Shown: positions 10,673 through 57,870 of the stretch, piece by piece
Layout: each line of letters begins with the position of its first letter
Numbering within the stretch: the first letter of the stretch is position 1
IMG/VR virus record: IMGVR_UViG_3300026116_000035
From: a virus
Taxonomy: Duplodnaviria > Caudoviricetes
Reading direction: 5' to 3' (one strand)
Length of the DNA: 64,000 bases
Notes under the pieces: generated by a model
Told to the model about the DNA's origin: nothing
Seen by the model: the letters and a program-made list of their open reading frames with translations, nothing else
Databases searched by the model: none
Translations under genes and position numbers: made by a program

Positions 10673-10858
10673 CAGGAAAAATCACGTATTAGTGCCAATT
10701 AAAAACTCTAAACTATTTTTAAATGTGAAAAATGTGATCACATAATCAAATGTGAAACATTTTATCATGATGATTGGTATTTTTTAAATGATATTGATGG
10801 TAGATTTTATTTTTTAAAAAATTGTCATGAAATGATAATTGCAAATATACTAGGTTGA
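10669..10858 (+). pseudogene. frameshifted paralogue of ORF 10862-11047
   Basis: Aligns to the next ORF (KNHVLVPIKNS...FKCEKCD...NCHEMIIANILG) with two 1-nt deletions, near 10675 and 10713. Confidence 0.75.
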
Positions 10859-10861
10859 TAA

Positions 10862-11047
10862 ATGATATATAAAAATCATATATTAACCCCAATTAAAAAT
10901 TCTAAACGTATTTTTAAATGTGAAAAATGTGATAATATAATTCAATGGCAAATGGGTAATTGGTGGTATTTTTTAGATTATACTAGAGGTGGTTTTTTTC
11001 CTCTAAGAGATTGTCATGAAATGATAATTGCGGAAGTATTAGGATAA
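10862..11047 (+). CDS. small CxxC protein with C-terminal signature (array A)
   Basis: CEKC; ends DCHEMIIAEVLG. Confidence 0.75.
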   Translation: MIYKNHILTPIKNSKRIFKCEKCDNIIQWQMGNWWYFLDYTRGGFFPLRDCHEMIIAEVLG

Positions 11048-12225: not shown

Positions 12226-12813
12226 GTGTATAAGTTTATGAAATTATCCGATTGGGCTAAATTACAAGGTATTTCTTACTTAACTGCTTATAAATGGTTT
12301 AAATCTGGTAAAATACCAAACGCAAAACAATATGATACAGGTACCATTCTAATATCTCTAGAAAAAGAAAACATATCAGATAATAATTCTTGTGTTATTT
12401 ATTGTAGAGTTTCTAATCAATCTCGAAAAAAAGAGTTAGAATACCAAGTTCAAAGATGTGAAGATTTTGCAAGGTCTAAAGGCTTATCAGTTAATAAAAT
12501 ATATAAAGAAGTAGCATCTGGTATGAATGATAAGCGCAGAGAATTATTAAAAATGATAGATTCGAATCCTAAAATTATTATCGTTGAAAATAAAGACCGA
12601 TTAACTAGATTTGGATTCAATTTTTTAGAAAAACTTTTATCTAAACTTGATTGTAAAATCATTGTCATTAATTATGATAAAGAAGATGAGGTTGATTTAA
12701 TTAAAGATCTTGTATCTATTATTACATCATTTTGTTGTAGATTATACGGATTAAGAAGAAGTAAAAATAAAATAAATAAAATTAAAAAAATTTTAAATGA
12801 ACAAAACGTATAA
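12226..12813 (+). CDS. tnpA: IS607 transposase TnpA (MerR-type HTH + serine recombinase)
   Basis: KLSDWAKLQGISYLTAYKW, VIYCRVS, EVASGMNDKR, ENKDRLTRFGF, DLVSIITSFCCRLYG. Confidence 0.95.
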   Translation: MYKFMKLSDWAKLQGISYLTAYKWFKSGKIPNAKQYDTGTILISLEKENISDNNSCVIYCRVSNQSRKKELEYQVQRCEDFARSKGLSVNKIYKEVASGMNDKRRELLKMIDSNPKIIIVENKDRLTRFGFNFLEKLLSKLDCKIIVINYDKEDEVDLIKDLVSIITSFCCRLYGLRRSKNKINKIKKILNEQNV

Positions 12814-14083
12814 AACATCGATTATTAAAATTTCAAATCTTAATCTTATTAAAGATTCAAATTTGTCTTTGTTTATTGATGAATATTACAAGGCTACCCT
12901 ATTTTTCATTGATTACCTCTGGAATAATAAAATTACTTATAAATCAAATGATTCTGAAAAAATATTTGATGTTAAAAATGATCAATTAGATTGTCCGAAA
13001 TTTATCCCTACTGTTAATATAAATTATAAAACAATTTTATCCGCAAGAGCATTAAAATGTGCCGCAAATCAAGCTTGTGGAATAATTGCTAGCCATATTG
13101 ATAAAAGAAAAAGATTAATATATGTACGAAATAAGCTTCAAAATGATGGTCAACGAACTCGTTCGTTGACTCGTAAAATTAATAATCTTACATTAAAAAA
13201 ACCTTCGGTTGACTATATAGAACCGAATCTCAATTCAATCTGTTCCCGAGTAGAAAAATCAAATATTAAACATTTTGATCATGTTTTAACTTTGAGTTCT
13301 ATCGGCAAAACTTTCGGTAAAATTAAAATTCCTTTTAATTATCATAAACATACAAGAAAATTAGAATCTGAAGGAAAATTGCTTTCTGGTTTAATGATTT
13401 CAAAAAATAATATTAAATTAGTTTTTGAAGTTCCTATACCTGAACCGAAAAAAGAAGGAAGAGTAGTTGGAGCCGATCAAGGTATAAATAGCTGTGTAAC
13501 TTTGTCGGATTCTCAAATTACTCCTAAAAATAAACATGGTCATGATTTAAATTATATTTTGAATAAACTTAAAAGAAAAACTAAAGGTTCTAAAGCTTTT
13601 AATAAAGTAAAAGCCCAGAGAGATAATTATATTAATTGGTCAATAAAACAATTAGATTTTTCTAAAATATCTCAAATTAATTTAGAAAAAATTTCAAATT
13701 TTAGGTATAAGAAAAATGTGGGGAAATTTTTAAACTACTTTAATGAAACTTTGATAAGAGAGAAATTGATAGATATAGCTCAACAATCTGGCGTCCGGAT
13801 TGTTGAGCAGAGTTCACCATTTCGTTCTCAGAGATGTAGTTCATGTGGTTATGTAAGTAAGAAGAATAGAAAAGGTAAGGATTTCAGTTGTAAACACTGT
13901 TCTTTTCAAACAGATGCGGATTTAAATGCAAGTTTAAATCATGAAATCAAACTTTCTTTTTCGTTTATTCTTTTTGCTTCTTTAAGAGAAATTAAAGAAT
14001 TCTTCTGGAAAGAAGAGGGATTTTTTAACTTAAATGGTTCGGAGATTGTAGTCCCGGATACAAATAAAAGATATAAACGATAA
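12797..14083 (+). CDS. tnpB: TnpB RNA-guided endonuclease
   Basis: RuvC-I GADQG, RuvC-II INLEK, zinc finger SQRCSSC...CKHC, RuvC-III DADLNASLN. Confidence 0.92.
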   Translation: MNKTYKTSIIKISNLNLIKDSNLSLFIDEYYKATLFFIDYLWNNKITYKSNDSEKIFDVKNDQLDCPKFIPTVNINYKTILSARALKCAANQACGIIASHIDKRKRLIYVRNKLQNDGQRTRSLTRKINNLTLKKPSVDYIEPNLNSICSRVEKSNIKHFDHVLTLSSIGKTFGKIKIPFNYHKHTRKLESEGKLLSGLMISKNNIKLVFEVPIPEPKKEGRVVGADQGINSCVTLSDSQITPKNKHGHDLNYILNKLKRKTKGSKAFNKVKAQRDNYINWSIKQLDFSKISQINLEKISNFRYKKNVGKFLNYFNETLIREKLIDIAQQSGVRIVEQSSPFRSQRCSSCGYVSKKNRKGKDFSCKHCSFQTDADLNASLNHEIKLSFSFILFASLREIKEFFWKEEGFFNLNGSEIVVPDTNKRYKR

Positions 14084-30422: not shown

Positions 30423-30734
30423 ATGGCTGATGAAAAAGAAGTAAAGAAATTTGAATCTGAATTAATTTGGGATGAAATTAAAGATCTTAGTATTGATATG
30501 TTTGGTTTACCTAATCAAAAAATATCGCAATATGTAACTCCAATTAATAAAATTCCTGGGAGTAAATTGTATGTAAAGATATCAGTATCGTCCGTAATTA
30601 CGTCATTAGAGAATGCAATTTCTCATAAATTTGATGTAAATCAGGGTGATACGTATATTACAATTGAGCGAAAAGCAGCACAGCCAGTAGAAATTTCTGA
30701 TGTTTTGCCGAATCGTTCAAAAAAGACTAAGTAA
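30423..30734 (+). CDS. hypothetical protein
   Basis: 103 aa; GAGG upstream. Confidence 0.75.
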   Translation: MADEKEVKKFESELIWDEIKDLSIDMFGLPNQKISQYVTPINKIPGSKLYVKISVSSVITSLENAISHKFDVNQGDTYITIERKAAQPVEISDVLPNRSKKTK

Positions 30735-30750
30735 TTTTATTTTAAATAAA

Positions 30751-31107
30751 ATGGCTGGAATTTGTAGTAGAAAATATCCTCATGCTATTTATTGGTATAA
30801 AAAGGGTACAGAAATTCTACATAGAGAAGATGGACCAGCTATAGAGCAGACCAATGGAACTAAATTATGGTATCAAAATGGATTATGTCATAGGATAAGT
30901 GGTCCAGCTGTAGAATTTTATGATGGTGCTAAACATTGGTATCAAAATGGAGAACGTCATAGAACGGATGGCCCGGCGATAGATAATAATATCTATGACG
31001 GGAACAAAGATTGGGATTATGCTGATCAAGAATATTGGTTATATGGAAAATATTATCCAAATATTAAAACTGACGAAGAATGGATTATATTTCAAATAAT
31101 AAATTAA
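30751..31107 (+). CDS. HR-x-DGPA repeat protein (array B, 3 repeats)
   Basis: HREDGPA, HRISGPA, HRTDGPA; ends TDEEWIIFQIIN; start set to ATG 30751. Confidence 0.85.
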   Translation: MAGICSRKYPHAIYWYKKGTEILHREDGPAIEQTNGTKLWYQNGLCHRISGPAVEFYDGAKHWYQNGERHRTDGPAIDNNIYDGNKDWDYADQEYWLYGKYYPNIKTDEEWIIFQIIN

Positions 31108-31108
31108 T

Positions 31109-31438
31109 ATGATTAAAGTATATTTTGAAAAAAATAAATATGGAACTATTTGTTGGTATAAAGAAGGAACTAAAATTCCTCATAGAGAAGATGGTCCAGC
31201 TAAAGAATATTCAAATAGATCTAAAGAATGGTACTATGATGGAGAACTCCATAGAGCAGATGGTCCAGCTATAGATTATATTGATGGATATAAAGAATAT
31301 TGGTTAAATGGATTATGTCATAGAAAGGATGGCCCAGCAATAATATTGAATGGAAGTGGATATTATTATCTGAATGATAAATATTATCCAAATATCACTA
31401 CAGATGAAGAATGGTTGATATTTCAAATAATTAATTAA
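31109..31438 (+). CDS. HR-x-DGPA repeat protein (array B, 3 repeats)
   Basis: HREDGPA, HRADGPA, HRKDGPA; ends TDEEWLIFQIIN. Confidence 0.85.
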   Translation: MIKVYFEKNKYGTICWYKEGTKIPHREDGPAKEYSNRSKEWYYDGELHRADGPAIDYIDGYKEYWLNGLCHRKDGPAIILNGSGYYYLNDKYYPNITTDEEWLIFQIIN

Positions 31439-31439
31439 T

Positions 31440-31703
31440 ATGACTAAAGTATATTCAAAAAAAGACGAATATGGAAATATTCGTTGGTACAAAACAGGTA
31501 CAAATCTTCTTCATAGGGAAGATGGTCCAGCTTTAGAATGGAATGATGGAACAAAATGGTGGTATCAAAATGATAGACGCCACAGAACAGATGGCCCTGC
31601 AATAGAATATATTAATGGATTTAAATATTACTATTTAAATGGGAAATATTATCCAGATATTAAAACCGATAAAGAATGGATTATATTTCAAATTATAAAT
31701 TAA
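31440..31703 (+). CDS. HR-x-DGPA repeat protein (array B, 2 repeats)
   Basis: HREDGPA, HRTDGPA; ends TDKEWIIFQIIN. Confidence 0.85.
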   Translation: MTKVYSKKDEYGNIRWYKTGTNLLHREDGPALEWNDGTKWWYQNDRRHRTDGPAIEYINGFKYYYLNGKYYPDIKTDKEWIIFQIIN

Positions 31704-31898
31704 ATGACTAAATCATATTGTGGAAAAAATGAATATGGAAATATTTATTAGTTTAAAGAAGGTACGAAAATTTCTCATAGTGAAGATGGACCAGCTATAG
31801 AATATAATGATGGAGAAAAAGAATATTGGTTAAATGATATTTGTTATCCAGACATTAAAACTGATGAAGAATGGTTAATATTTCAAATAATTAATTAA
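31704..31898 (+). pseudogene. HR-x-DGPA family pseudogene (array B, 1 repeat)
   Basis: In-frame TAG at 31749 where paralogues have TGG (Trp); continues HSEDGPA...TDEEWLIFQIIN. Confidence 0.8.
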
Positions 31899-46300: not shown

Positions 46301-46989
46301 TTTATCCTTGGCCTGAAACTGGGGAATGGTCAATTTCTGAAATAAATGCATTAGAGCATTTTTATATTGGTGAAGGATTAACCGGATCTAAATTTGATGT
46401 TTATAAAGGATTTTTTAGTAAACATCATCGTAATTTTGCTGATTTTGTAGGTTTTCATCCGCCACCACCTGAAGGTATGGATGAAAAAGATCTTAAAAAT
46501 TATGTTAAAAAAGTCAATTTTGTAGAGGGTATAGTTAAATCTATATTTGAATTTAAGATTAAAAAGGAAAAGAGTAAGTTATTTGGTCAGACGATGGCTA
46601 AAATATCTATTGAAGATCCTTATGGAAATGAATTAAGTATAACTTGCTTTCCAGAAAAGTGGGAATACTTAAAGGAAAGAATTAAAGATATTAATGCTAA
46701 ACTTAAATTTGAAATAGGTATGGGTTTATCTATGACAGGTAATTTACAATGGTGGGAAGGAAATTTATCATTAATATTTGATGAGTTAGCTAATGCATGT
46801 CCTCCACCACAACTTCCTGCTGATTTAAAGGCCAAGAAAACTGAAACGGTAAAAAAGGCAAAAGAAGAGGTAGTTGATGAAAATATGGATAGAAATGAAT
46901 TATTAGAAGAAATTGAAGATGAATTGGCAGAATCTGGATTTGCTGATTTAGATGATGAAAATGATTTAGAGGAACATAATTTTGAATGA
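43351..46989 (+). CDS. dnaE: DNA polymerase III alpha subunit (family C)
   Basis: PHP SLHNHTTYS, GPGRGSVGGS, catalytic PDCDSD, GTHAAG, KMDLLGL, YSFNKSHA; no intein-sized insert. Confidence 0.97.
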   Translation: MTEEIVKDSETVEIKEYPYVSLHNHTTYSIFQSLIKPADLFKRAKELGQKAIAVTDKNTCAGFWESLKASKETGVKLIAGLEISFVDDVSILDSKLRNVVLIAKNAQGYQNLLKISKIGYDNFIIARKNPLPRIDWKILEEYKEGLLCITGDTSGIIPRLLNDKKFEEAEKQALRLKGIFGDDLAFELQPNALKRALGNYNEIADQAQANRQLKKLGEKLNIRLIAATNSYYINPEQYDAHDTWLAMQSSQPKSSGNRLSFNVNDFYIKSGKEVFEFFKRTQGYELNGDGEIFATKLLKDTIDFAKKCENPEWIDPRYSNPSGKELPTFPVKDQEDYIEFKQWLIKQKNQTLEEDVQYLRYKCITNYKTIIANNPKYKNVADIYKKRIYEELDVLESQGFSGYMLIVADFLEWARKNKVSVGPGRGSVGGSLIGYLLGIHEADPIKYGLIFARFHSKMKISAPDCDSDISKINRHLVEKYLIEKYGSSHVASISTFNTLTPKPYVKAIARTFLYGGDRSEAVKIGTMLADTIPAEAKTVSRMFEYSPLLNEYCKKYKELKEYSDAFGKNPIAIGTHAAGLIISKRELTGLVPLRRDKEGSVSLEYEKEGAEENGMVKMDLLGLATLDVIDNTYKLIKKVNKIIPYDKFDYESYDKDAYDLISNGDTMGVFQFGTSGGTIELCKRYQPKSIEDLAIITTLARPAAKEIRDDFFKVKNGEQEISYFHPLLERAFSKTLGFPLYDESLLILAEDVAGWDLNEADKLRKLTKEKGKNPAKAKKWKEEFISNANERKNIKPEIAEKIWVDIIEPFGKYSFNKSHAVLYSMISYHTAYLKAHYRFEFLVANLMEQVSSKAQKAKNDVVKYKEEIRKFNAKIVTPNINTSGAVYTIIGENTLATGLNALKYMGQDAIPEILAKRPFKSFEDFLTRTDSSKVKAPAIQALAASGALSEFNMPRKQMFLYAADYKKKLQVWLKKKPEKRGEFVYPWPETGEWSISEINALEHFYIGEGLTGSKFDVYKGFFSKHHRNFADFVGFHPPPPEGMDEKDLKNYVKKVNFVEGIVKSIFEFKIKKEKSKLFGQTMAKISIEDPYGNELSITCFPEKWEYLKERIKDINAKLKFEIGMGLSMTGNLQWWEGNLSLIFDELANACPPPQLPADLKAKKTETVKKAKEEVVDENMDRNELLEEIEDELAESGFADLDDENDLEEHNFE

Positions 46990-47285
46990 TAAAATATATT
47001 AAATATAATATTAAATATATTGAATATGATAATAATGATTTAATATCAATGATTCAGGATATTAAGAAAGATACACATAAAATTGATATTTATTATCATG
47101 CCAAATTTGATTGTGAGGAATTCGGATTTCGTTTACGTGATAATGATGAAGTATGGTTTGTTATTTTGCCTTTTAAAGAATGTAAAAAAATAATTGAATC
47201 TAGATTAAATATAAAATATAGTCAATTATATGATTATATGAATTTAACCAAAGAAGAATTTATTATTAAAAATATAATAGATTAA
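46986..47285 (+). CDS. small protein with C-terminal signature (array C)
   Basis: Ends NLTKEEFIIKNIID; ATGA overlap with dnaE. Confidence 0.8.
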   Translation: MIKYIKYNIKYIEYDNNDLISMIQDIKKDTHKIDIYYHAKFDCEEFGFRLRDNDEVWFVILPFKECKKIIESRLNIKYSQLYDYMNLTKEEFIIKNIID

Positions 47286-47307
47286 TTGTATAATTAAAGA
47301 TTTAATT

Positions 47308-47589
47308 ATGATTACTGGTAAATATTATAATTTCAATAGATATGATAATTTACTTTATATGGTAGAAGATATGAAAAATTCTGGCCATAAAATTGTAAAA
47401 TGTGATAATTATTTTGAATTAGAATTTAAATCACATTCAGAATCAACTGCTAAATTTTGTTGGATGATTAGGTTAGATTTAGTTAAAAAAAATAATTCAT
47501 TAAATAAATTAAACATAACAATAGATCAAATAGTTGATTATGTTAACTTAACCGATGAAGAATTTATTATTAAAAATATAATAGAATAA
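47308..47589 (+). CDS. small protein with C-terminal signature (array C)
   Basis: Ends DYVNLTDEEFIIKNIIE. Confidence 0.8.
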   Translation: MITGKYYNFNRYDNLLYMVEDMKNSGHKIVKCDNYFELEFKSHSESTAKFCWMIRLDLVKKNNSLNKLNITIDQIVDYVNLTDEEFIIKNIIE

Positions 47590-47601
47590 ATATAATTTAA
47601 T

Positions 47602-47898
47602 ATGACTAAATTTTTTAAAAATGAGCATTATTTTAATAGATATACTAATTTATCTTTTATGGTAAGTGATATGAAAGCGCTAAATCATAAAATTATAAAA
47701 ATTAATAATTCCATTGATTTAATATTTAAAACATTTTCACAAGCAAATTATAAAATACATTTTGTTATGAGTTCAAGTTTAATTACAACGAATTCACTAA
47801 AAGAATTAAAAAATGAATTAAATATAACTTTAGATCAAATAGTAGATTATGTTAATTTAACTGAAAAAGAATTTATTATTAAAAATATAATAGAATAA
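47602..47898 (+). CDS. small protein with C-terminal signature (array C)
   Basis: Ends DYVNLTEKEFIIKNIIE. Confidence 0.8.
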   Translation: MTKFFKNEHYFNRYTNLSFMVSDMKALNHKIIKINNSIDLIFKTFSQANYKIHFVMSSSLITTNSLKELKNELNITLDQIVDYVNLTEKEFIIKNIIE

Positions 47899-48164
47899 AT
47901 GATATATAATAAATATACCGATTTAGCTTAATGATAAAAGATATTAAGCAATCAGGCCAAAAAATTGAAAAAAGTGACAATTCGACTAAATTAGAATTAG
48001 GTTTTAAATCAAATTCTACACCTGAAATATTTTGGCAGATTAGTATTTTTTATTTTATGTATCAAAAACATGTATTAAATAAATTTAATATAACATTTGA
48101 TGAAATAGTAGATTATATTAATTTAACTGAAGAAGAGTTTATTATTAAAAATATTATAGAGTAG
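47899..48164 (+). pseudogene. array C member with 5' frameshift (MIKDIK... ORF from 47931 is intact)
   Basis: ATG 47899 MIYNKYTDLA matches paralogue RYTNLSFM but is 1 nt out of frame; ends NLTEEEFIIKNIIE. Confidence 0.65.
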
Positions 48165-51315: not shown

Positions 51316-52032
51316 ATGAGTGAAAAAAATCAATTCGGTGCAACTAGTTGGGATATAGACACAGGTTCTTCGTTCAAGAAAGGTCCGTCAGCAAAAGACC
51401 TTTATTTACGTCTAGAACAGGGTAGTAACGTTATTAGAATTATTACCAAGCCGCATGAGTATTTGGTCCATCAGGGTTTTAAGCCTGATCCTCAAGCTCC
51501 AGGTTATGGCAAAAAAGTAATGTCATCAAAGTTTTATGGTGAAGATTGTTTAGAGAAGCCGCCGTGGAATTTAAAGGCTAAGCGTCGTTGGCTTGTTGGT
51601 GTTATTGATCGTAAGACTCAATCATATAAGCTTCTAGACATTTCGAAGTCAGTATTTGATGGTATTCGTGAATTAGTTCGAGACTCTGATTATGGTCCGA
51701 CTGAGGGTTATGATATCGATATTAAGGTCGATAAGCAAGGCGGAGCTACTGGATATTACAAAGTAGTGCCGAAGCCTGCTAAGCCGCTCTCTCCTGCTGA
51801 TTTAGAGATTAAGCAGAATGTAGATTTGGAAGATCTTAAACGGAGGTGCTCGCCACCCACTATTGCAAGTATGGAAGAGCGTGTTAAAGCTATTATTGCT
51901 GAAGCTGGAATTAAAACTCCCGCGAATGGAGCAGCAGTAACAATGTCAAATTCGGCTTCTTCGTCAGTTTCTGAAAATCATGATTCAGATAATAGTGGAG
52001 ATGATGATTTTGACTTTCCACCGGTTAACTAA
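51316..52032 (+). CDS. gp32-like single-stranded DNA-binding protein
   Basis: LRLEQGSNVIRII, GVIDR...KLLDISKSVF, GYDIDI; acidic tail DDDFDFPPVN; next to recA. Confidence 0.75.
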   Translation: MSEKNQFGATSWDIDTGSSFKKGPSAKDLYLRLEQGSNVIRIITKPHEYLVHQGFKPDPQAPGYGKKVMSSKFYGEDCLEKPPWNLKAKRRWLVGVIDRKTQSYKLLDISKSVFDGIRELVRDSDYGPTEGYDIDIKVDKQGGATGYYKVVPKPAKPLSPADLEIKQNVDLEDLKRRCSPPTIASMEERVKAIIAEAGIKTPANGAAVTMSNSASSSVSENHDSDNSGDDDFDFPPVN

Positions 52033-52063
52033 TCTTAATAAAATATAATTTAAAATAGTTCTT

Positions 52064-52094
52064 AAGGCAGTTAATTAATTTTAACTGCCTTTTT
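52064..52094 (+). terminator. intrinsic terminator
   Basis: aaggcagttaa-ttaatt-ttaactgcctt plus T run. Confidence 0.85.
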
Positions 52095-52480: not shown

Positions 52481-53119
52481 ATGTCAAAAATTATAATGGG
52501 TATAGATTGTTCTACGACTACTATAGGTGTATCGGTTATTGAGGAGACTGATGATGGTTATTTATTATTTAAACACGTAGAGCATTATAATCCTATAAAA
52601 AAGAATACTCATCCTTTAGATACTTTAAAATGGGTGAAAGAGTATATTTTATCTAAACTTGAAGAATTTTCGCCTGATGAAGTGGGTATAGAAGAATTCA
52701 TTAAATTTATGAAAGGTAATTCTTCGGCAGATTCTACAATTTCTTTGGCTATTATAAATAGATTAGTGTGTATGACTATTTATGAATATTTTGATAAAAA
52801 GCCTTGGATTTTAAATGTAAATACTATTAGAGCATTAATAAAACCAAAAAATTATGAATTTCCAAGAGTTTCAAAAGAACAAATTCTTCCTTTAGTTTGT
52901 AAAATATTAAATATAGAATGGAAATGGTTAAAGAACAAAAAAGGCAAAATTGAAGATTTCAATTTTGACCGCAGTGATTCTATTGCAGTATCTATAGCTT
53001 TATCATATGGTTTACGCTCTGGTAAAATTAAATCAACGAATGGTATGAAAATTAAAAAATCTAAGAAAAAAGCAATTAAAAAAGATAAACCACAAAATCG
53101 AGCGAAGAAGATGGTATAG
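52481..53119 (+). CDS. ruvC: RuvC-like Holliday junction resolvase
   Basis: IMGIDCSTTTIG, VGIEE, DRSDSIAVS. Confidence 0.85.
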   Translation: MSKIIMGIDCSTTTIGVSVIEETDDGYLLFKHVEHYNPIKKNTHPLDTLKWVKEYILSKLEEFSPDEVGIEEFIKFMKGNSSADSTISLAIINRLVCMTIYEYFDKKPWILNVNTIRALIKPKNYEFPRVSKEQILPLVCKILNIEWKWLKNKKGKIEDFNFDRSDSIAVSIALSYGLRSGKIKSTNGMKIKKSKKKAIKKDKPQNRAKKMV

Positions 53120-53157
53120 CTTCAATATGTGAAAATCTAAAATTAAGAGATATTTAA

Positions 53158-54090
53158 ATGAATTCACAAGAAGCTTATAAAATATTAGAATTGCAACCTT
53201 CAGCTACTCCGGAAGAAATCCAAGCTGCATTTAGAAAATTAGCTAAAAAATATCATCCAGATTTAAATAAAGATAATCCTGATGCAGAAAGTAAATTTAA
53301 AGAAATTAATTCAGCTTATCAATTATTAACAAATCCTTCTCCTAGACAACAGGATTTTAATAATTCTGTTAATATAAATTTTCAGGATCTTTTTAATCAA
53401 GCATTTGGTGGTAATCCTTTTGGCGGCGGATTCGGTGGTTTTGGTTCTAATCCTGCCCCCATTGCACCTAATAATACTACAATTTCTTTTGCTGAATCTG
53501 TTTTAGGTGTAGAAAAAGAATTAGAAATTACACAAAATCAAACTTGTGGTGTTTGTCATGGAAATGGTTCTACTTCTGATGTAAATAATTGTAATTTTTG
53601 TCAGGGTAAAGGGGCAAAACAAGCTTCATTTTCGCGTGGAGCTATGAGTTTTATTGAACAGTGCCAAAAATGTAAGGGAACTGGCAAAATTCAAAATCCG
53701 TGTAAACCTTGTGAGGAAAAAGGATTTACATCGATTAAAATGAACAAAAAAATTAAAATTCCTGGTGGTGTATTAAATAATAATGTATTAAAAATTCCTG
53801 GTGGATTTATTAAAATAAATGTAGAAGCTGATTCTGATATGAGATTGGAAGATGGTAATGTAGTTTCCGATATAAATATTTCTCTTTTAGAAGCTTTAAA
53901 GGGAACGTTAAAACCTGTAAAAACGGTAAAAGGGGAAATGAATTTAAAAATACCCGCAAATATTAAAAATGGAAATTCTGTACAGGTACATGGGTATGGA
54001 GTTGAGGGACATGGTAGTCATATTTTTAATATAAGTGTAAATTACCCACAGGATACTCAAAAATTAATTGAGTTGCTTGAGAGTGAGTAA
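53158..54090 (+). CDS. dnaJ: DnaJ (Hsp40) co-chaperone
   Basis: J domain with HPD, G/F-rich linker, CxxCxGxG repeats, C-terminal domain. Confidence 0.93.
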   Translation: MNSQEAYKILELQPSATPEEIQAAFRKLAKKYHPDLNKDNPDAESKFKEINSAYQLLTNPSPRQQDFNNSVNINFQDLFNQAFGGNPFGGGFGGFGSNPAPIAPNNTTISFAESVLGVEKELEITQNQTCGVCHGNGSTSDVNNCNFCQGKGAKQASFSRGAMSFIEQCQKCKGTGKIQNPCKPCEEKGFTSIKMNKKIKIPGGVLNNNVLKIPGGFIKINVEADSDMRLEDGNVVSDINISLLEALKGTLKPVKTVKGEMNLKIPANIKNGNSVQVHGYGVEGHGSHIFNISVNYPQDTQKLIELLESE

Positions 54091-54334
54091 ATTGGATTCT
54101 GTAATAAATGAAATTATTGAATACTTAAATCATAGATTTGAATTAATTATAATAAGTAACTATGGTAAAACTTATACCTGTAATAGGTGTAATTGTAAAG
54201 TTGATAAGTTTATAGATACTCCATATTATAAATCGAATAAAAATCAATATTGGCTTCATGATATTTATGGCAAACCGTATAAAATATTAAATTTAACTTG
54301 CGATGAAATGATAATTAAAAATATAGTGGAATAA
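54068..54334 (+). CDS. array D member 1
   Basis: YLNH, CNRC, LTCDEMIIKNIVE; start uncertain. Confidence 0.8.
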   Translation: MSCLRVSKLDSVINEIIEYLNHRFELIIISNYGKTYTCNRCNCKVDKFIDTPYYKSNKNQYWLHDIYGKPYKILNLTCDEMIIKNIVE

Positions 54335-54336
54335 AT

Positions 54337-54573
54337 ATGTTATCAAATTTTGAATATTTAGGACATAATTTTTCACCTTTAACTAAAACCACTTGTTACG
54401 TTACTTATTTTTGTTTAAAGTGTAATTGTAAAATTAGTAAATGTGAAATTGGAATACCGTATAGTAATGTAAAAGAGGATAAATATTGGGTTTGTTTTAA
54501 TCAATTGTATGTATTCCATAACTCATTAAATTTAACTTGTGATGAAATAATAATTAAAAATATAATAGAATAA
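54337..54573 (+). CDS. array D member 2
   Basis: YLGH, CLKC, LTCDEIIIKNIIE. Confidence 0.8.
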   Translation: MLSNFEYLGHNFSPLTKTTCYVTYFCLKCNCKISKCEIGIPYSNVKEDKYWVCFNQLYVFHNSLNLTCDEIIIKNIIE

Positions 54574-54779
54574 TGAATAAAATTATTTTAGGCCATGAAT
54601 TACAATTATTACATAAAACTTATGGTCTATATACTTATATATGTGTTAAATGTAATTCTCATATTCAATCTTTTTTGCGTAGTAATAGTAAACACGAGTA
54701 TTATATTTATGGAATAAATTATTTTAGAGATTTAGATTTAACTTGTGATGAAGTAATAATTAAAAATATAATAGAATGA
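54573..54779 (+). CDS. array D member 3
   Basis: ILGH, CVKC, LTCDEVIIKNIIE. Confidence 0.8.
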   Translation: MNKIILGHELQLLHKTYGLYTYICVKCNSHIQSFLRSNSKHEYYIYGINYFRDLDLTCDEVIIKNIIE

Positions 54780-55009
54780 ATATAAACACAGACCACGAAT
54801 ATTTAGGTCACATTTGTAAAATCATAAATAAACGTACTTATTATACTGTATTTTTATGTTTGAGGTGTGGTTATAAGTTTACGCTCTATCCAAAAAATAC
54901 TGTATATAATTATAGAATGGAAGATGAATATTTAATTTATTTAGATGGAACATATGGGCCACTGAAGTTAACTTGTGATGAAATGATAATTAAGAATATA
55001 TTAGAATAA
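54776..55009 (+). CDS. array D member 4
   Basis: YLGH, CLRC, LTCDEMIIKNILE. Confidence 0.8.
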   Translation: MNINTDHEYLGHICKIINKRTYYTVFLCLRCGYKFTLYPKNTVYNYRMEDEYLIYLDGTYGPLKLTCDEMIIKNILE

Positions 55010-55236
55010 TGAAACCAAATATTGAATATTTAGGTCATAGATTTATTTTTAAAAATTCTTTAGCAGAATATGATAGATATAGCTGTGAAATATGTGATTC
55101 AATATATATTATACATACTGAATTATATTTAATGTGTCATAAAACCGCCACGAGGTATAAAATTTATGATATTCATTTGGATAAAATAAATAAATTAACG
55201 TGTGATGAAGTTCTTATTAAAAATATAATAGAATAA
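55009..55236 (+). CDS. array D member 5
   Basis: YLGH, CEIC, LTCDEVLIKNIIE. Confidence 0.8.
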   Translation: MKPNIEYLGHRFIFKNSLAEYDRYSCEICDSIYIIHTELYLMCHKTATRYKIYDIHLDKINKLTCDEVLIKNIIE

Positions 55237-55475
55237 TGCTTAATTATTTAAATCATAATTTTAGTTCATATTATCAATCATATGTTAAAATTTTTAAATT
55301 TACTAATAAAGATAAAAATTATATAATTTCATTTTATTATTGTGATAAATGTCATATTAGATGTTTTAACAGAGAAAATGACAGTAGTTGGTATTATTGG
55401 GATGATAGTAAAACATCTTATCAATTGTTAAAATTAACATGTGATGAAATGATTATTAGTAATATTACAGGATAG
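55236..55475 (+). CDS. array D member 6
   Basis: YLNH, CDKC, LTCDEMIISNITG. Confidence 0.8.
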   Translation: MLNYLNHNFSSYYQSYVKIFKFTNKDKNYIISFYYCDKCHIRCFNRENDSSWYYWDDSKTSYQLLKLTCDEMIISNITG

Positions 55476-55480
55476 TTACG

Positions 55481-55707
55481 TTTGATGAAAATTACTTAAA
55501 TCATAATTTTATATTAATTGAAAAAAAATCCTGAATTTTTTAAAAATATAAAATATAAAATATTCTAGTTATCATTGTGAAAAATGTAATATTGTAGTAG
55601 ATAGTCATAATACACATCCTGCTATTCCATATTCAGTTATTGATGATTTATATGTTAAATTAATTTTTACTTGCGAAGAAATAATAATTAAAAATATAGT
55701 AGAATGA
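55481..55707 (+). pseudogene. array D member 7 (frameshifted)
   Basis: ENYLNHNF in one frame; YHCEKC...FTCEEIIIKNIVE in another. Confidence 0.75.
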
Positions 55708-55931
55708 TGCCATTAGTAGATATCGAACATTTGGGGCATAAATTTAAATTAATTTATGAAGATTGGATTTGTTATTCTTATTTATGCGAAAAATGTAATT
55801 GTGTAGTAGATCTTTATATAAATAATCATGCTAAATATGATAATTTGCTTTTAATGTATGATAATGATAAATATTATGAAAAGTTAAATTTAACTTGTGA
55901 TGAAATAATTATTAAAAACATAATAGAATGA
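55704..55931 (+). CDS. array D member 8
   Basis: HLGH, CEKC, LTCDEIIIKNIIE. Confidence 0.8.
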   Translation: MMPLVDIEHLGHKFKLIYEDWICYSYLCEKCNCVVDLYINNHAKYDNLLLMYDNDKYYEKLNLTCDEIIIKNIIE

Positions 55932-56158
55932 TAAATTTAGCTGAAATTAAATATTTAGAACATAAATTTGAATGTATATCAACAAATATAAATTATACTT
56001 ATTTATGTAAAAAATGTAATTGCGTTGCTTATCTTAATATAAATGATAAAATTCCTTATGAAAAAATAGTTTTGAAAGTTATTGATACGAGTAATAAAAA
56101 ATTAATTAATTTAAATTTAACTTGCGATGAATGGATTATTAAAAATATCATAGAATGA
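55928..56158 (+). CDS. array D member 9
   Basis: YLEH, CKKC, LTCDEWIIKNIIE. Confidence 0.8.
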   Translation: MINLAEIKYLEHKFECISTNINYTYLCKKCNCVAYLNINDKIPYEKIVLKVIDTSNKKLINLNLTCDEWIIKNIIE

Positions 56159-56358
56159 AGTATTTAACCCACGAATTAAGTCCATGTAGTATATATGGAC
56201 TTGAGCAATTTGGTTATAAATGCAATATTTGTAATGTAATATTATATTTTTCAATACAAGGAAATTATTATTTAATTAGAAATGATATAAATTATATTGA
56301 AAGTGATGTATTTTTGTTTACTTGTAATGAATGGATTATTAAAAAAATAATTGATTAA
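56155..56358 (+). CDS. array D member 10
   Basis: YLTH, CNIC, FTCNEWIIKKIID. Confidence 0.8.
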   Translation: MKYLTHELSPCSIYGLEQFGYKCNICNVILYFSIQGNYYLIRNDINYIESDVFLFTCNEWIIKKIID

Positions 56359-56568
56359 ATGAAAAAATATTTAACTCATACATTAAACCCAACTAAAATT
56401 TATGGTCCATATAATGACCATGATTATAAATGTAATATTTGTGGAGTGTATTTACTTGAAGATTACTTTGGTAAATTTTTATTAATTACAAATAATGGAA
56501 ATGATGTTGAAGATGATAAATTTTCACTTACTTGCGATGAATGGATTATTAGAAATATAATAGAATGA
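56359..56568 (+). CDS. array D member 11
   Basis: YLTH, CNIC, LTCDEWIIRNIIE. Confidence 0.8.
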   Translation: MKKYLTHTLNPTKIYGPYNDHDYKCNICGVYLLEDYFGKFLLITNNGNDVEDDKFSLTCDEWIIRNIIE

Positions 56569-56771
56569 AATACCTAACGCATAAATTAAGTCAATGTCAC
56601 ATATATGGCACTAATAACACTTCTGATTATAAATGTGATGTTTGTGGCGTAATATTATATTTAAATTCAATGGGTAATTATAAATTAATTACAAATAATG
56701 GAAATAATGTTAAATCTAATATATTTTTGCTAACTTGTGACGAATGGATTATTAGAAAAATAATAGAATGA
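56565..56771 (+). CDS. array D member 12
   Basis: YLTH, CDVC, LTCDEWIIRKIIE. Confidence 0.8.
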   Translation: MKYLTHKLSQCHIYGTNNTSDYKCDVCGVILYLNSMGNYKLITNNGNNVKSNIFLLTCDEWIIRKIIE

Positions 56772-56971
56772 AATACTTAACTCATCAATTAAGCTAATGT
56801 AAAATTTATGGTACAGATAATATCTATGATTATAAATGTGATATCTGTGGAGTATATTTGCTCAAGAATCATTCAGAATTTTATTTAATTACTGATAATG
56901 GAAACAATGTAAAATTAACTGAATTTGTATTAACTTGCGATGAAGTTATTATCAAAAAGATTATAGAATGA
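56768..56971 (+). pseudogene. array D member 13 (nonsense mutation)
   Basis: MKYLTHQLS then TAA at 56795 where the next paralogue has CAA; rest is open to LTCDEVIIKKIIE. Confidence 0.85.
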
Positions 56972-57174
56972 AATATTTAACTCATCAATTAAGCCAATGT
57001 AAAATTTATGGCTTTAATAAAAATTATGATTTTAAATGTGATATTTGTGATATAATGTTGTATCAGGATATGAATGGGAATTATTATTTAATTACGAAAA
57101 ATGGAACTAAAGTTGAAAATACTATATCATTTGTTACCTGTGACGAATGGATTATTAGAAAAATAATTGATTAA
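56968..57174 (+). CDS. array D member 14
   Basis: YLTH, CDIC, VTCDEWIIRKIID. Confidence 0.8.
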   Translation: MKYLTHQLSQCKIYGFNKNYDFKCDICDIMLYQDMNGNYYLITKNGTKVENTISFVTCDEWIIRKIID

Positions 57175-57402
57175 ATGGATAATATAGACATTCCAGTTAA
57201 ATCTAAATTTAATTATTTGACTCATAAATTTGTTTTAGAAATCAAAGGTAATGCATATTGTATGTATATTTGTGAGAAATGTAATTGTAAAGTATATTCT
57301 ATGTATAATAGTAATGAAATATATGATTATTCAGCATTATATCCAGGTATTAAATTTACTCTTACCTGCGATGAATATATGATCAAATCAATAATAGAAT
57401 AA
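57175..57402 (+). CDS. array D member 15
   Basis: YLTH, CEKC, LTCDEYMIKSIIE. Confidence 0.8.
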   Translation: MDNIDIPVKSKFNYLTHKFVLEIKGNAYCMYICEKCNCKVYSMYNSNEIYDYSALYPGIKFTLTCDEYMIKSIIE

Positions 57403-57403
57403 T

Positions 57404-57634
57404 ATGAAAGATTTAAAATATAAGAAATTTGTTCGTTTAGGACATAAATTTTTATGGTCTCAAGTAACATTTTTCTTAGAAACTCGGGAAGATATTTATA
57501 TTTGTGAAAAATGTAATTATAAAATTCTGATATTTGATAATAATTTAGATTATTTATCTGATTTAAACTCATTTGATTTTAGTCAATTAAAATTATATTG
57601 CAATGAATATATAATTAAATCAATTATAGAATAA
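57404..57634 (+). CDS. array D member 16
   Basis: RLGH, CEKC, LYCNEYIIKSIIE. Confidence 0.8.
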   Translation: MKDLKYKKFVRLGHKFLWSQVTFFLETREDIYICEKCNYKILIFDNNLDYLSDLNSFDFSQLKLYCNEYIIKSIIE

Positions 57635-57636
57635 AT

Positions 57637-57861
57637 ATGTCAGTTACAAATCAAAAATCATTTAAATATCTAGATCATTATTTTATTTACTTTGATACAT
57701 GTGATAATTTTTATGATATTTATATTTGTGAAAAATGTAATTGCAAAGTGGATATATCTGGTAATGATTGTAATCGATTATATTATTCAGAAGAAAAGTT
57801 TAAATTGATTTTATTTACATTAACCTGCACTGAATATATTATCAAATCCATAATAGATTAA
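57637..57861 (+). CDS. array D member 17
   Basis: YLDH, CEKC, LTCTEYIIKSIID. Confidence 0.8.
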   Translation: MSVTNQKSFKYLDHYFIYFDTCDNFYDIYICEKCNCKVDISGNDCNRLYYSEEKFKLILFTLTCTEYIIKSIID

Positions 57862-57870
57862 GGAAATTAA

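Follow-up and report, generated by a model that had tools for sequence, protein, structure and literature searches.

Directly behind the dnaJ gene of an uncultivated phage, a run of short and very dissimilar genes occupies 54068-57861 on the + strand, and the question that this locus raises is what so many versions of one small protein could be for. The window in which it lies is a stretch of 64,000 nucleotides (nt) from IMG/VR record IMGVR_UViG_3300026116_000035 (Duplodnaviria; Caudoviricetes); it is the reverse complement of 12034-76033 in one virus record of 131,451 bp and 28% GC, and the runs containing the sequence are rhizosphere and soil metagenomes; no RNA run was among those listed for the array, a result that speaks neither for nor against expression. 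Because CheckV puts the completeness of this 131-kb record at 31% and the same mini-proteins are present on a 390,274-bp contig, we regard the record as a fragment of a huge phage. Our preferred reading, to which we give a probability of roughly one half, is that the locus is a polycistronic run of duplicated genes for single-zinc mini-proteins whose variable surface forms a repertoire of binders to host partners. We favor intracellular binders because a constant core carries three free hairpins, the charge is not basic, evolutionary rates are unequal, and large expansions have occurred repeatedly. We take the mini-proteins to be cytoplasmic and to belong to a large, uncharacterized family from huge uncultivated phages.

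Layout of the array

Seventeen co-oriented mini-genes tile 54068-57861 completely; 15 are intact, encoding 67 to 88 amino acids (aa), and two are pseudogenes. Neighboring units are joined by ATGA or TAATG overlaps or are otherwise separated by gaps of 0 to 2 nt, leaving no intergenic space; the units therefore form one translationally coupled operon that is continuous with dnaJ. The units, and three further members of the family that lie downstream, are as follows:

54068..54334, + strand, unit 1, intact; start uncertain (TTG at 54068 or GTG at 54083)
54337..54573, + strand, unit 2, intact, 78 aa
54573..54779, + strand, unit 3, intact, 68 aa
54776..55009, + strand, unit 4, intact, 77 aa
55009..55236, + strand, unit 5, intact, 75 aa
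55236..55475, + strand, unit 6, intact, 79 aa; first variable hairpin lengthened by a long insertion, end of the tail diverged (ISNITG)
55476..55706, + strand, unit 7, pseudogene; CxxC and tail remain recognizable
55704..55931, + strand, unit 8, intact, 75 aa; modeled
55928..56158, + strand, unit 9, intact, 76 aa; sister of unit 8
56155..56358, + strand, unit 10, intact, 67 aa, KYLTH subfamily
56359..56568, + strand, unit 11, intact, 69 aa, KYLTH subfamily
56565..56771, + strand, unit 12, intact, 68 aa, KYLTH subfamily; modeled
56768..56971, + strand, unit 13, pseudogene, otherwise in frame
56968..57174, + strand, unit 14, intact, 68 aa, KYLTH subfamily
57175..57402, + strand, unit 15, intact, 75 aa
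57404..57634, + strand, unit 16, intact, 76 aa
57637..57861, + strand, unit 17, intact, 74 aa
58283..58923, + strand, three divergent members of 70, 74, and 66 aa, with the His, the CxxC, and the last Cys 2 residues earlier

Unit 7 carries three lesions: its start position reads ACG where the paralogs have ATG, the frame is shifted at an A8 run, and a TAA falls in frame. Unit 13 is interrupted by a single change that turns codon 10, CAA in the paralogs, into TAA. An alternative genetic code was considered for the two broken units and rejected, as unit 7 is also frameshifted and the other 15 units are clean in table 11. At the local base composition, a 67-codon frame has a chance of about 6e-4 of staying open, so 15 consecutive open frames are not the product of chance. 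The original prediction had counted 17 copies in this interval, which is indeed fully tiled, but only 15 of them are intact and the count can be reached only with the two pseudogenes.

Nor are these 17 units self-contained. The tail of the three downstream proteins takes the form EEKIIKDIIE, and hhalign against the family profile yields a probability of 86% over the part from the CxxC to the C-terminus; they are true but divergent members. About nine more members lie elsewhere in the 131-kb record, which holds about 29 overall. Two shorter ones, at 10712-11044, end in CHEMIIA(E/N)(V/I)LG, and the first of these has no recognizable N-terminal part and may be decayed.

As an independent sample, we compared the window with short contigs that another study had obtained from a soil metagenome. 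These contigs cover 28 of the 30 bins of 53000-59800 at 88 to 98% identity, and the array is not an assembly artifact, a possibility raised with the original prediction, as far as tiling by contigs tests it. The run marked as the possible source yielded no contig across the array, but its records may have been filtered. Identities between these contigs and the window differ along the region:

53000-53663, ruvC-dnaJ, 98% identity
54526-55076 and 55571-55906, array pieces, 88-89% identity
56963-57364, units 14-15, 98.5% identity
58837-59250, primase, 96.6% identity

A conserved scaffold in a large family

Across the 15 intact copies, the residues that never change are L, H, C, C, C, E, I, and I. 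With a profile built from them, a search of 1.84 billion cluster representatives retrieved 823 proteins at E<=1e-3; the best 150 of these matches are 64 to 105 aa long, apart from one protein of 1206 aa. We aligned 138 of the matches, excluding the 1206-aa protein. The only invariant columns of this alignment are His11, Cys27, Cys30, and Cys64 (unit-8 numbering), while L9, E66, I69, K70, I72, and E74 are each more than 90% conserved. Conservation falls into an N-terminal block, (D/N)xNYLGHxF, a YxCxKC knuckle, Tyr47, and the last 15 residues, where the nearly invariant C-terminal helix reads LTCDExIIKNIIE-stop; column entropy and indels are concentrated in three hairpin segments (residues 14-24, 33-46, and 51-59). 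Synonymous sites are free to vary within the conserved tail codons, and the constraint therefore acts on the protein and not on a DNA signal. A promoter signal of sigma-70-like hexamers within the tail codons (TTGTGA-N18-TATAAT) was also considered and rejected: the synonymous positions vary, promoter-like matches in this AT-rich DNA exceed those in shuffles only modestly (110 against 84), and protein-level conservation of the family extends over phages of 29 to 37% GC. A His/Cys3 scaffold with variable segments had been proposed for these proteins and holds up well, with all four ligand candidates invariant in the 138 sequences; from this conservation, each mini-protein is probably a single structural zinc module.

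This family has no entry in the collections that we searched. Among 59 Pfam families matched by the 138 members at E<=0.1, none reaches its cut-off; no PHROG (v4) is matched by more than one of the 138 (best E 2.6e-4), and the window members themselves give nothing at threshold in Pfam or PHROGs scans. In the PDB, the sequence profile reached E 0.008 at best, with a cytochrome whose CxxC matches by chance; GenBank phages yielded nothing at E<=0.01 in a tblastn search with a consensus-like member; a scan of GTDB genome contigs gave only a spurious match of 16 residues; and full-text literature searches found no prior description of the family. Two candidate relatives were set aside. The anti-sigma-F factor Fin (PF10955) is matched by one distal member at 14.7 bits against a cut-off of 23.7, and by 1 of the 138 at E 0.013. 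The zf-CHC2 finger of DnaG/T7-type primases is missing both from the list of 25 Pfam families obtained with the 138 members, whose ligand order is H-C-C-C, and from all 10 window proteins scanned for it.

Large arrays of the family recur in other phages. A complete 459-kb IMG/VR phage (~37% GC) has 82 family matches, 54 of them within 30.8-48.6 kb; a 57.5-kb metagenomic contig (31% GC) has 20 members in 20 kb; and a 7.4-kb IMG/VR fragment has six. Beside part of the main array of the 459-kb phage (locus 11987-19092) are genes that Pfam matches identify as those for a cytidylyltransferase-like nucleotidyltransferase, methyltransferases, a Pol-beta nucleotidyltransferase, and Thg1 (tRNA-His guanylyltransferase), and the same flank holds an AAA_33 kinase with a polynucleotide-kinase 3'-phosphatase domain. 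This setting is an accessory-gene neighborhood, and we take such kinds of gene to have roles in tRNA repair and in nucleotide or cofactor metabolism. The dnaJ gene of this phage is at 216 kb, and no family match occurs within 40 kb of it; the position behind dnaJ, from which the original prediction had started and which is real in the window, is therefore not a conserved feature. One member from another metagenome (locus 2363-2680) has a hydrophobic N-terminal extension of about 35 residues, which suggests that some family members may be membrane-anchored; its gene stands between an MT-A70 methyltransferase gene and, one open reading frame (ORF) further on, an HNH endonuclease gene.

AlphaFold2 models were made from deep alignments for unit 8 (model 1) and unit 12 (model 2), with a mean predicted local distance difference test score (pLDDT) of 80.6 and 92.5, respectively. 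Both show five to six short strands and then a C-terminal helix, which begins at the last Cys. In this arrangement, the His in the first long strand, the CxxC knuckle, and the Cys at the helix start would tie the small beta-sheet to the C-terminal helix; core and helix stay constant, and the three hairpins vary freely in sequence and length. In Foldseek searches of the PDB, BFVD, and ESM Atlas, neither model had a match at E<=0.001. The best AlphaFold DB matches of model 1 are almost all FLYWCH-type fingers, at E 0.05-0.3 and template modeling (TM) scores of 0.43-0.54, and FLYWCH entries are also present in both ESM Atlas searches; model 2 has no FLYWCH rows in AlphaFold DB, where its best E is 1.1. 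With VIA-align, the best hits are PipX at Z 5.1 for model 1 and a C1 domain at Z 4.1 for model 2, both below the caution level of 8. C1-domain entries account for 14 of the 50 rows listed for model 2, at Z 2.1-4.1, a range that the tool calls common; the top row is the protein kinase C (PKC) beta II chain 8se1_A (Z 4.1, root mean square deviation 2.2 Å over 44 residues).

The ligand candidates can also be compared with those of C1 domains, which are small beta-rich zinc modules with a short C-terminal helix, as the mini-proteins would be. In one C1 zinc site, a His near the N-terminus is followed by a central CxxC and then a Cys near the C-terminus, which is the order seen here. C1 domains are, however, eukaryotic lipid- or protein-binding modules that bind two zinc ions, whereas the mini-proteins have one ligand set: a single H/C/C/C set is conserved in place of the two-zinc motif HX12CX2CXnCX2CX4HX2CX7C, and Pfam C1_2 is matched by only 2 of the 138 members, at E 0.068 or weaker. 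FLYWCH and WRKY-GCM1 fingers have a four-stranded sheet stabilized by one zinc, which is the point of similarity, with weak Foldseek matches to model 1 only; they are eukaryotic, with C2H2 dyad ligands (PMC1702500) and a basic DNA-binding surface, unlike the mini-proteins. The FLYWCH dyads CxnC ... HxH/C are not found in the family, and the 25 Pfam families listed, out of 59 at E<=0.1, do not include FLYWCH. The FLYWCH and C1 matches being weak and inconsistent, we assign the fold to no named family and regard it, from the models, as that of a small zinc module, treble-clef-like, for which no relative is established.

These comparisons bear on whether the units are nucleic-acid-binding zinc fingers, that is, binders of particular DNA or RNA sequences, e.g., regulators of transcription or replication, possibly working with the adjacent primase. 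The array does lie among replication genes, and the primase at 58920-59711 has its catalytic core from its very start and no N-terminal CHC2 zinc-binding domain of the DnaG type; the FLYWCH-rich matches of model 1 point the same way. That signal is lost in the better model, charge in the family runs from neutral to acidic (mean net charge -1.8, median isoelectric point 5.8), and no Pfam nucleic-acid-binding finger reaches threshold in the 138 members. The order H...CxxC...C also differs from the C-H-C-C of the DnaG finger, and the arrays of other phages are not beside a primase. Given also that this order is unlike the C2H2 dyads of FLYWCH and WRKY (PMC1702500), we find nucleic-acid binding doubtful and the less likely reading.

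Evolution of the array and the case for binders

Amino acid identity between array copies is 17 to 65% pairwise. Units 10-14 are closer to each other (50 to 65%), as the original prediction had noticed, but the recent duplication that it had read from this did not stand: synonymous divergence (dS) among them is 0.5 to 0.7 or higher and the subfamily is also found in proteins from other sources, so that these units are not recent copies and represent a subfamily that expanded locally some time ago. In a tree of 202 sequences, which is poorly resolved because only 70 columns are usable, units 1-4, 8-9, and 10-14 form local clusters, and proteins from other sources branch between these; for one member encoded outside the window, the 57.5-kb contig carries a close ortholog. 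Conservation at the DNA level is highest in a block of 50 nt over the tail and stop codon, which occurs 16 times at 70 to 92% identity to a reference copy. Fifteen of these blocks are in the array (72 to 92% identity, spaced 200 to 240 nt apart) and the sixteenth is in the distal trio at 58283-58923; such a junction block would be a natural substrate for unequal crossover. The birth-and-death evolution that had been proposed for the array is supported because it displays local sub-clusters, two pseudogenes, and this conserved junction block.

Diversification by a diversity-generating retroelement (DGR), for which the original prediction had seen no support, is not supported over more DNA either. 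The 131-kb record, ~31% complete, has no match to RVT_1 (PF00078), and 53500-59500 has no near-identical repeat pair, its longest direct repeats being 299 nt at 62 to 75% identity; within the DNA covered by these scans, there is thus neither a reverse transcriptase nor a template/variable pair of the kind that differs only at adenines.

Rates of change could be scored in one positional ortholog pair, provided by an independent soil contig of about 5x depth that covers the end of dnaJ together with unit 1. The differences, with the ratio of nonsynonymous to synonymous differences per site (pN/pS), were:

dnaJ part, 9 synonymous and 1 nonsynonymous, pN/pS 0.03
unit 1, all codons, 4 synonymous and 14 nonsynonymous, pN/pS 0.72
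unit 1, scaffold codons, 2 synonymous and 2 nonsynonymous, pN/pS 0.18
unit 1, variable codons, 2 synonymous and 12 nonsynonymous, pN/pS about 1.3

The ortholog of unit 1 also has an in-frame 6-nt deletion in a loop, and the gene is still open. The adjacent dnaJ is thus under strong constraint, whereas unit 1 shows a constrained core with loops that are either unconstrained or diversifying, two possibilities that these small counts do not separate. Neutrally evolving loops had been named in advance as an outcome that would speak against binders, and on this point the result is borderline, with a ratio near 1.3 in the variable part of one pair and very small counts. Other copies behave differently: in units 14-15, identity to the related strain is 98.5%, so not all copies are fast-evolving.

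A different view of these data is that the duplications are functionless or selfish, a by-product of recombination whose copies drift to decay without benefit. Decay has indeed overtaken 2 of the 17 units, the variable parts of unit 1 change at about the neutral rate, and the junction repeats favor slippage and crossover. Drift of this kind is difficult to square with four invariant residues and a near-invariant tail in 138 sequences from 823 clusters, with 15 frames kept open against the odds given above, with the low ratio in the scaffold codons, or with the maintenance of large arrays in unrelated huge phages, and we consider pure junk decidedly unlikely.

We therefore return to the reading of a binder repertoire. 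The array would grow and shrink by unequal crossover at the conserved ~50-nt junctions, and copies would then diverge, some of them decaying. Their variable surfaces would bind different partners, most likely host proteins that serve in defense or are targets of takeover, and the phage would carry a standing repertoire of small binders.

Several points weigh against this reading. The ratio in the loops of unit 1 (12 versus 2 changes) fits relaxed constraint equally well. Within units 10-14, whole-gene dN/dS is 0.1 to 0.7, with synonymous sites near saturation, and three of the four classified differences between units 14-15 and the related strain are synonymous. We infer both the zinc binding, from conservation only, and the role as binders or inhibitors of defense. 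Finally, the C-terminal tail is common to unrelated bodies, and a view of it as a purely structural helix leaves it unexplained.

Gene accordions of poxviruses and multigene families of giant viruses offer one comparison for the growth of the array: copy number grows by tandem recombination, and divergence and loss follow. Poxvirus accordions are recent, near-identical, and under acute selection, whereas the mini-gene copies are old (17 to 65% amino acid identity, dS at least 0.5) and fall into subfamilies that also include proteins from other sources. For the proposed function, the closest comparison is with the tandem polyimmunity arrays, such as those of the SUKH and Imm families, in polymorphic toxin loci of bacteria (PMC3113570, PMC3482391). 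There too, small co-oriented paralogs have diversified on a constant fold, and those proteins are thought to neutralize varied protein effectors; some families of this type have been taken up by DNA viruses (PMC3113570, PMC3482391). The mini-proteins have no sequence relationship to them, and structural rows for immunity proteins or inhibitors are weak (Z 2.2-3.8); unlike polyimmunity arrays, the mini-protein arrays are in phage genomes, have no adjacent toxin gene, and use a single-zinc scaffold.

The shared tail and the surrounding genes

The original prediction had described the terminal LTC-D-E motif as a mark of the copies; it is present in them, but it is not specific to the family. In the 131-kb record, the coding strand has 51 occurrences of a loose 10-residue pattern of the tail, 50 of them exactly C-terminal, and the other strand has only two, neither of them C-terminal. 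The 50 ORFs that end in it have at least three types of body, namely the zinc family, a Cys-less family, and HREDGPA-repeat proteins. The Cys-less family comprises four tandem paralogs of about 100 aa at 46986-48161, directly after the DnaE polymerase gene; it can be aligned with the zinc family only in the last ~20 residues (NLTxEEFIIKNIIE; hhalign probability 94%), and no homologs of it were found outside this phage lineage. The repeat proteins are about 24 small proteins with repeats of the Y-x-N-G-x-x-HR-x-DGPA type, located at 30700-31895 in the window and in ~20 further copies in the record outside it. All end in TDEEWIIFQIIN-stop, which closely resembles the tail of the zinc family. Two members scanned gave no Pfam match, and the copy at 31704-31898 is apparently broken by TAG.

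That the tail sits on at least three body types favors a role beyond holding a zinc ligand, and from this arises the main and a serious rival to the binder reading, although we rate it as a tentative one. In this rival, the constant tail (an acidic pair, x-I-I-x-x-I-I, an acidic or amide residue, and the stop) is an address or docking tag for one common partner or place, and the zinc mini-domain is one of several cargo or recognition bodies; candidate destinations are the capsid, for packaging and co-injection, a phage compartment, and a chaperone or AAA+/unfoldase machine. It is possible, at the same low odds, that the tag directs dozens of small proteins with otherwise unrelated bodies, and that the array is then a library of cargo for a kind of phage sorting system not described before. 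The nearly exclusive C-terminal placement of the pattern suits such a tag, as does the fact that 149 of the 150 best database matches of the zinc family run to the last residue. Moreover, the final residue is Glu in 134 of the 138 aligned sequences, and the residues presumed to face solvent (E66, K70, N71, and E74) are nearly invariant.

On the other side, the last of the four invariant ligand candidates sits at the start of the helix, which is modeled confidently within the fold, while a T-x-x-E capping box and an E-K-E i/i+4 ladder could serve the stability of the helix alone. The HREDGPA-repeat family is also absent from the 459-kb relative that carries 82 zinc mini-protein matches. A phage precedent for terminal tags is given by T4-type internal proteins (IPI and relatives), which are hypervariable, are clustered in plastic loci, and have a short terminal capsid-targeting sequence that is N-terminal and cleaved; they include at least one anti-restriction protein. 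They share with the mini-proteins a short constant terminal peptide on diverse small phage proteins, but here the constant part is at the extreme C-terminus and holds a putative zinc ligand. The binder and tag readings are compatible, as the bodies could bind targets while the tail docks them.

The genes surrounding the array are all on the + strand and have replication and recombination functions; they encode a DnaE-type polymerase, SbcCD, a RecA-like protein, RuvC, DnaJ, the primase core, and a sigma region-4 protein. The gene directly 5' of the array, which overlaps unit 1 and is a context gene outside the mini-protein family, is:

53158..54090, + strand, phage dnaJ with J domain, CxxCxGxG zinc domain, and C-terminal domain (Pfam DnaJ, DnaJ_CXXCXGXG, and DnaJ_C)

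Co-folding of the C-terminal domain of this DnaJ with unit 8 gave a score of 0.01 in a single prediction, which lends a complex no support and does not count against one. Further observations concern other parts of the window. An ORF of 108 aa with two zinc-ribbon-like CxxC...CxxC units lies at 57871-58197, about 700 nt upstream of the primase, and a 238-aa ORF at 51316-52091, about 450 nt upstream of ruvC, has an acidic C-terminal tail of the DDDFDF type and no Pfam match; the only strong terminator-like hairpin of the region follows it at 52064-52091. Shortly downstream of the sigma-like gene, the ORF at 60810-61724 encodes a GIY-YIG endonuclease and is likely a homing endonuclease. A 428-aa ORF at 12797-14083 with a Cas12f1-like TNB domain and a weak OrfB_IS605 match is TnpB-like, which suggests that an element of the IS200/IS605 or IS607 type is inserted in the phage genome.

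Huge phages hold much unexplained coding capacity, and a single family accounts for 82 matches in the 459-kb phage and about 29 here; it is a large family without an entry in Pfam, PHROGs, the PDB, or the GenBank phage records searched. With one tail on unrelated bodies, it becomes a testable question whether a terminal tag serves phages to sort groups of small proteins. Should the mini-proteins prove to bind host targets, they would constitute a natural repertoire of phage countermeasures to mine, and their zinc-stabilized scaffold of ~70 residues with three variable hairpins would be available for binder engineering.

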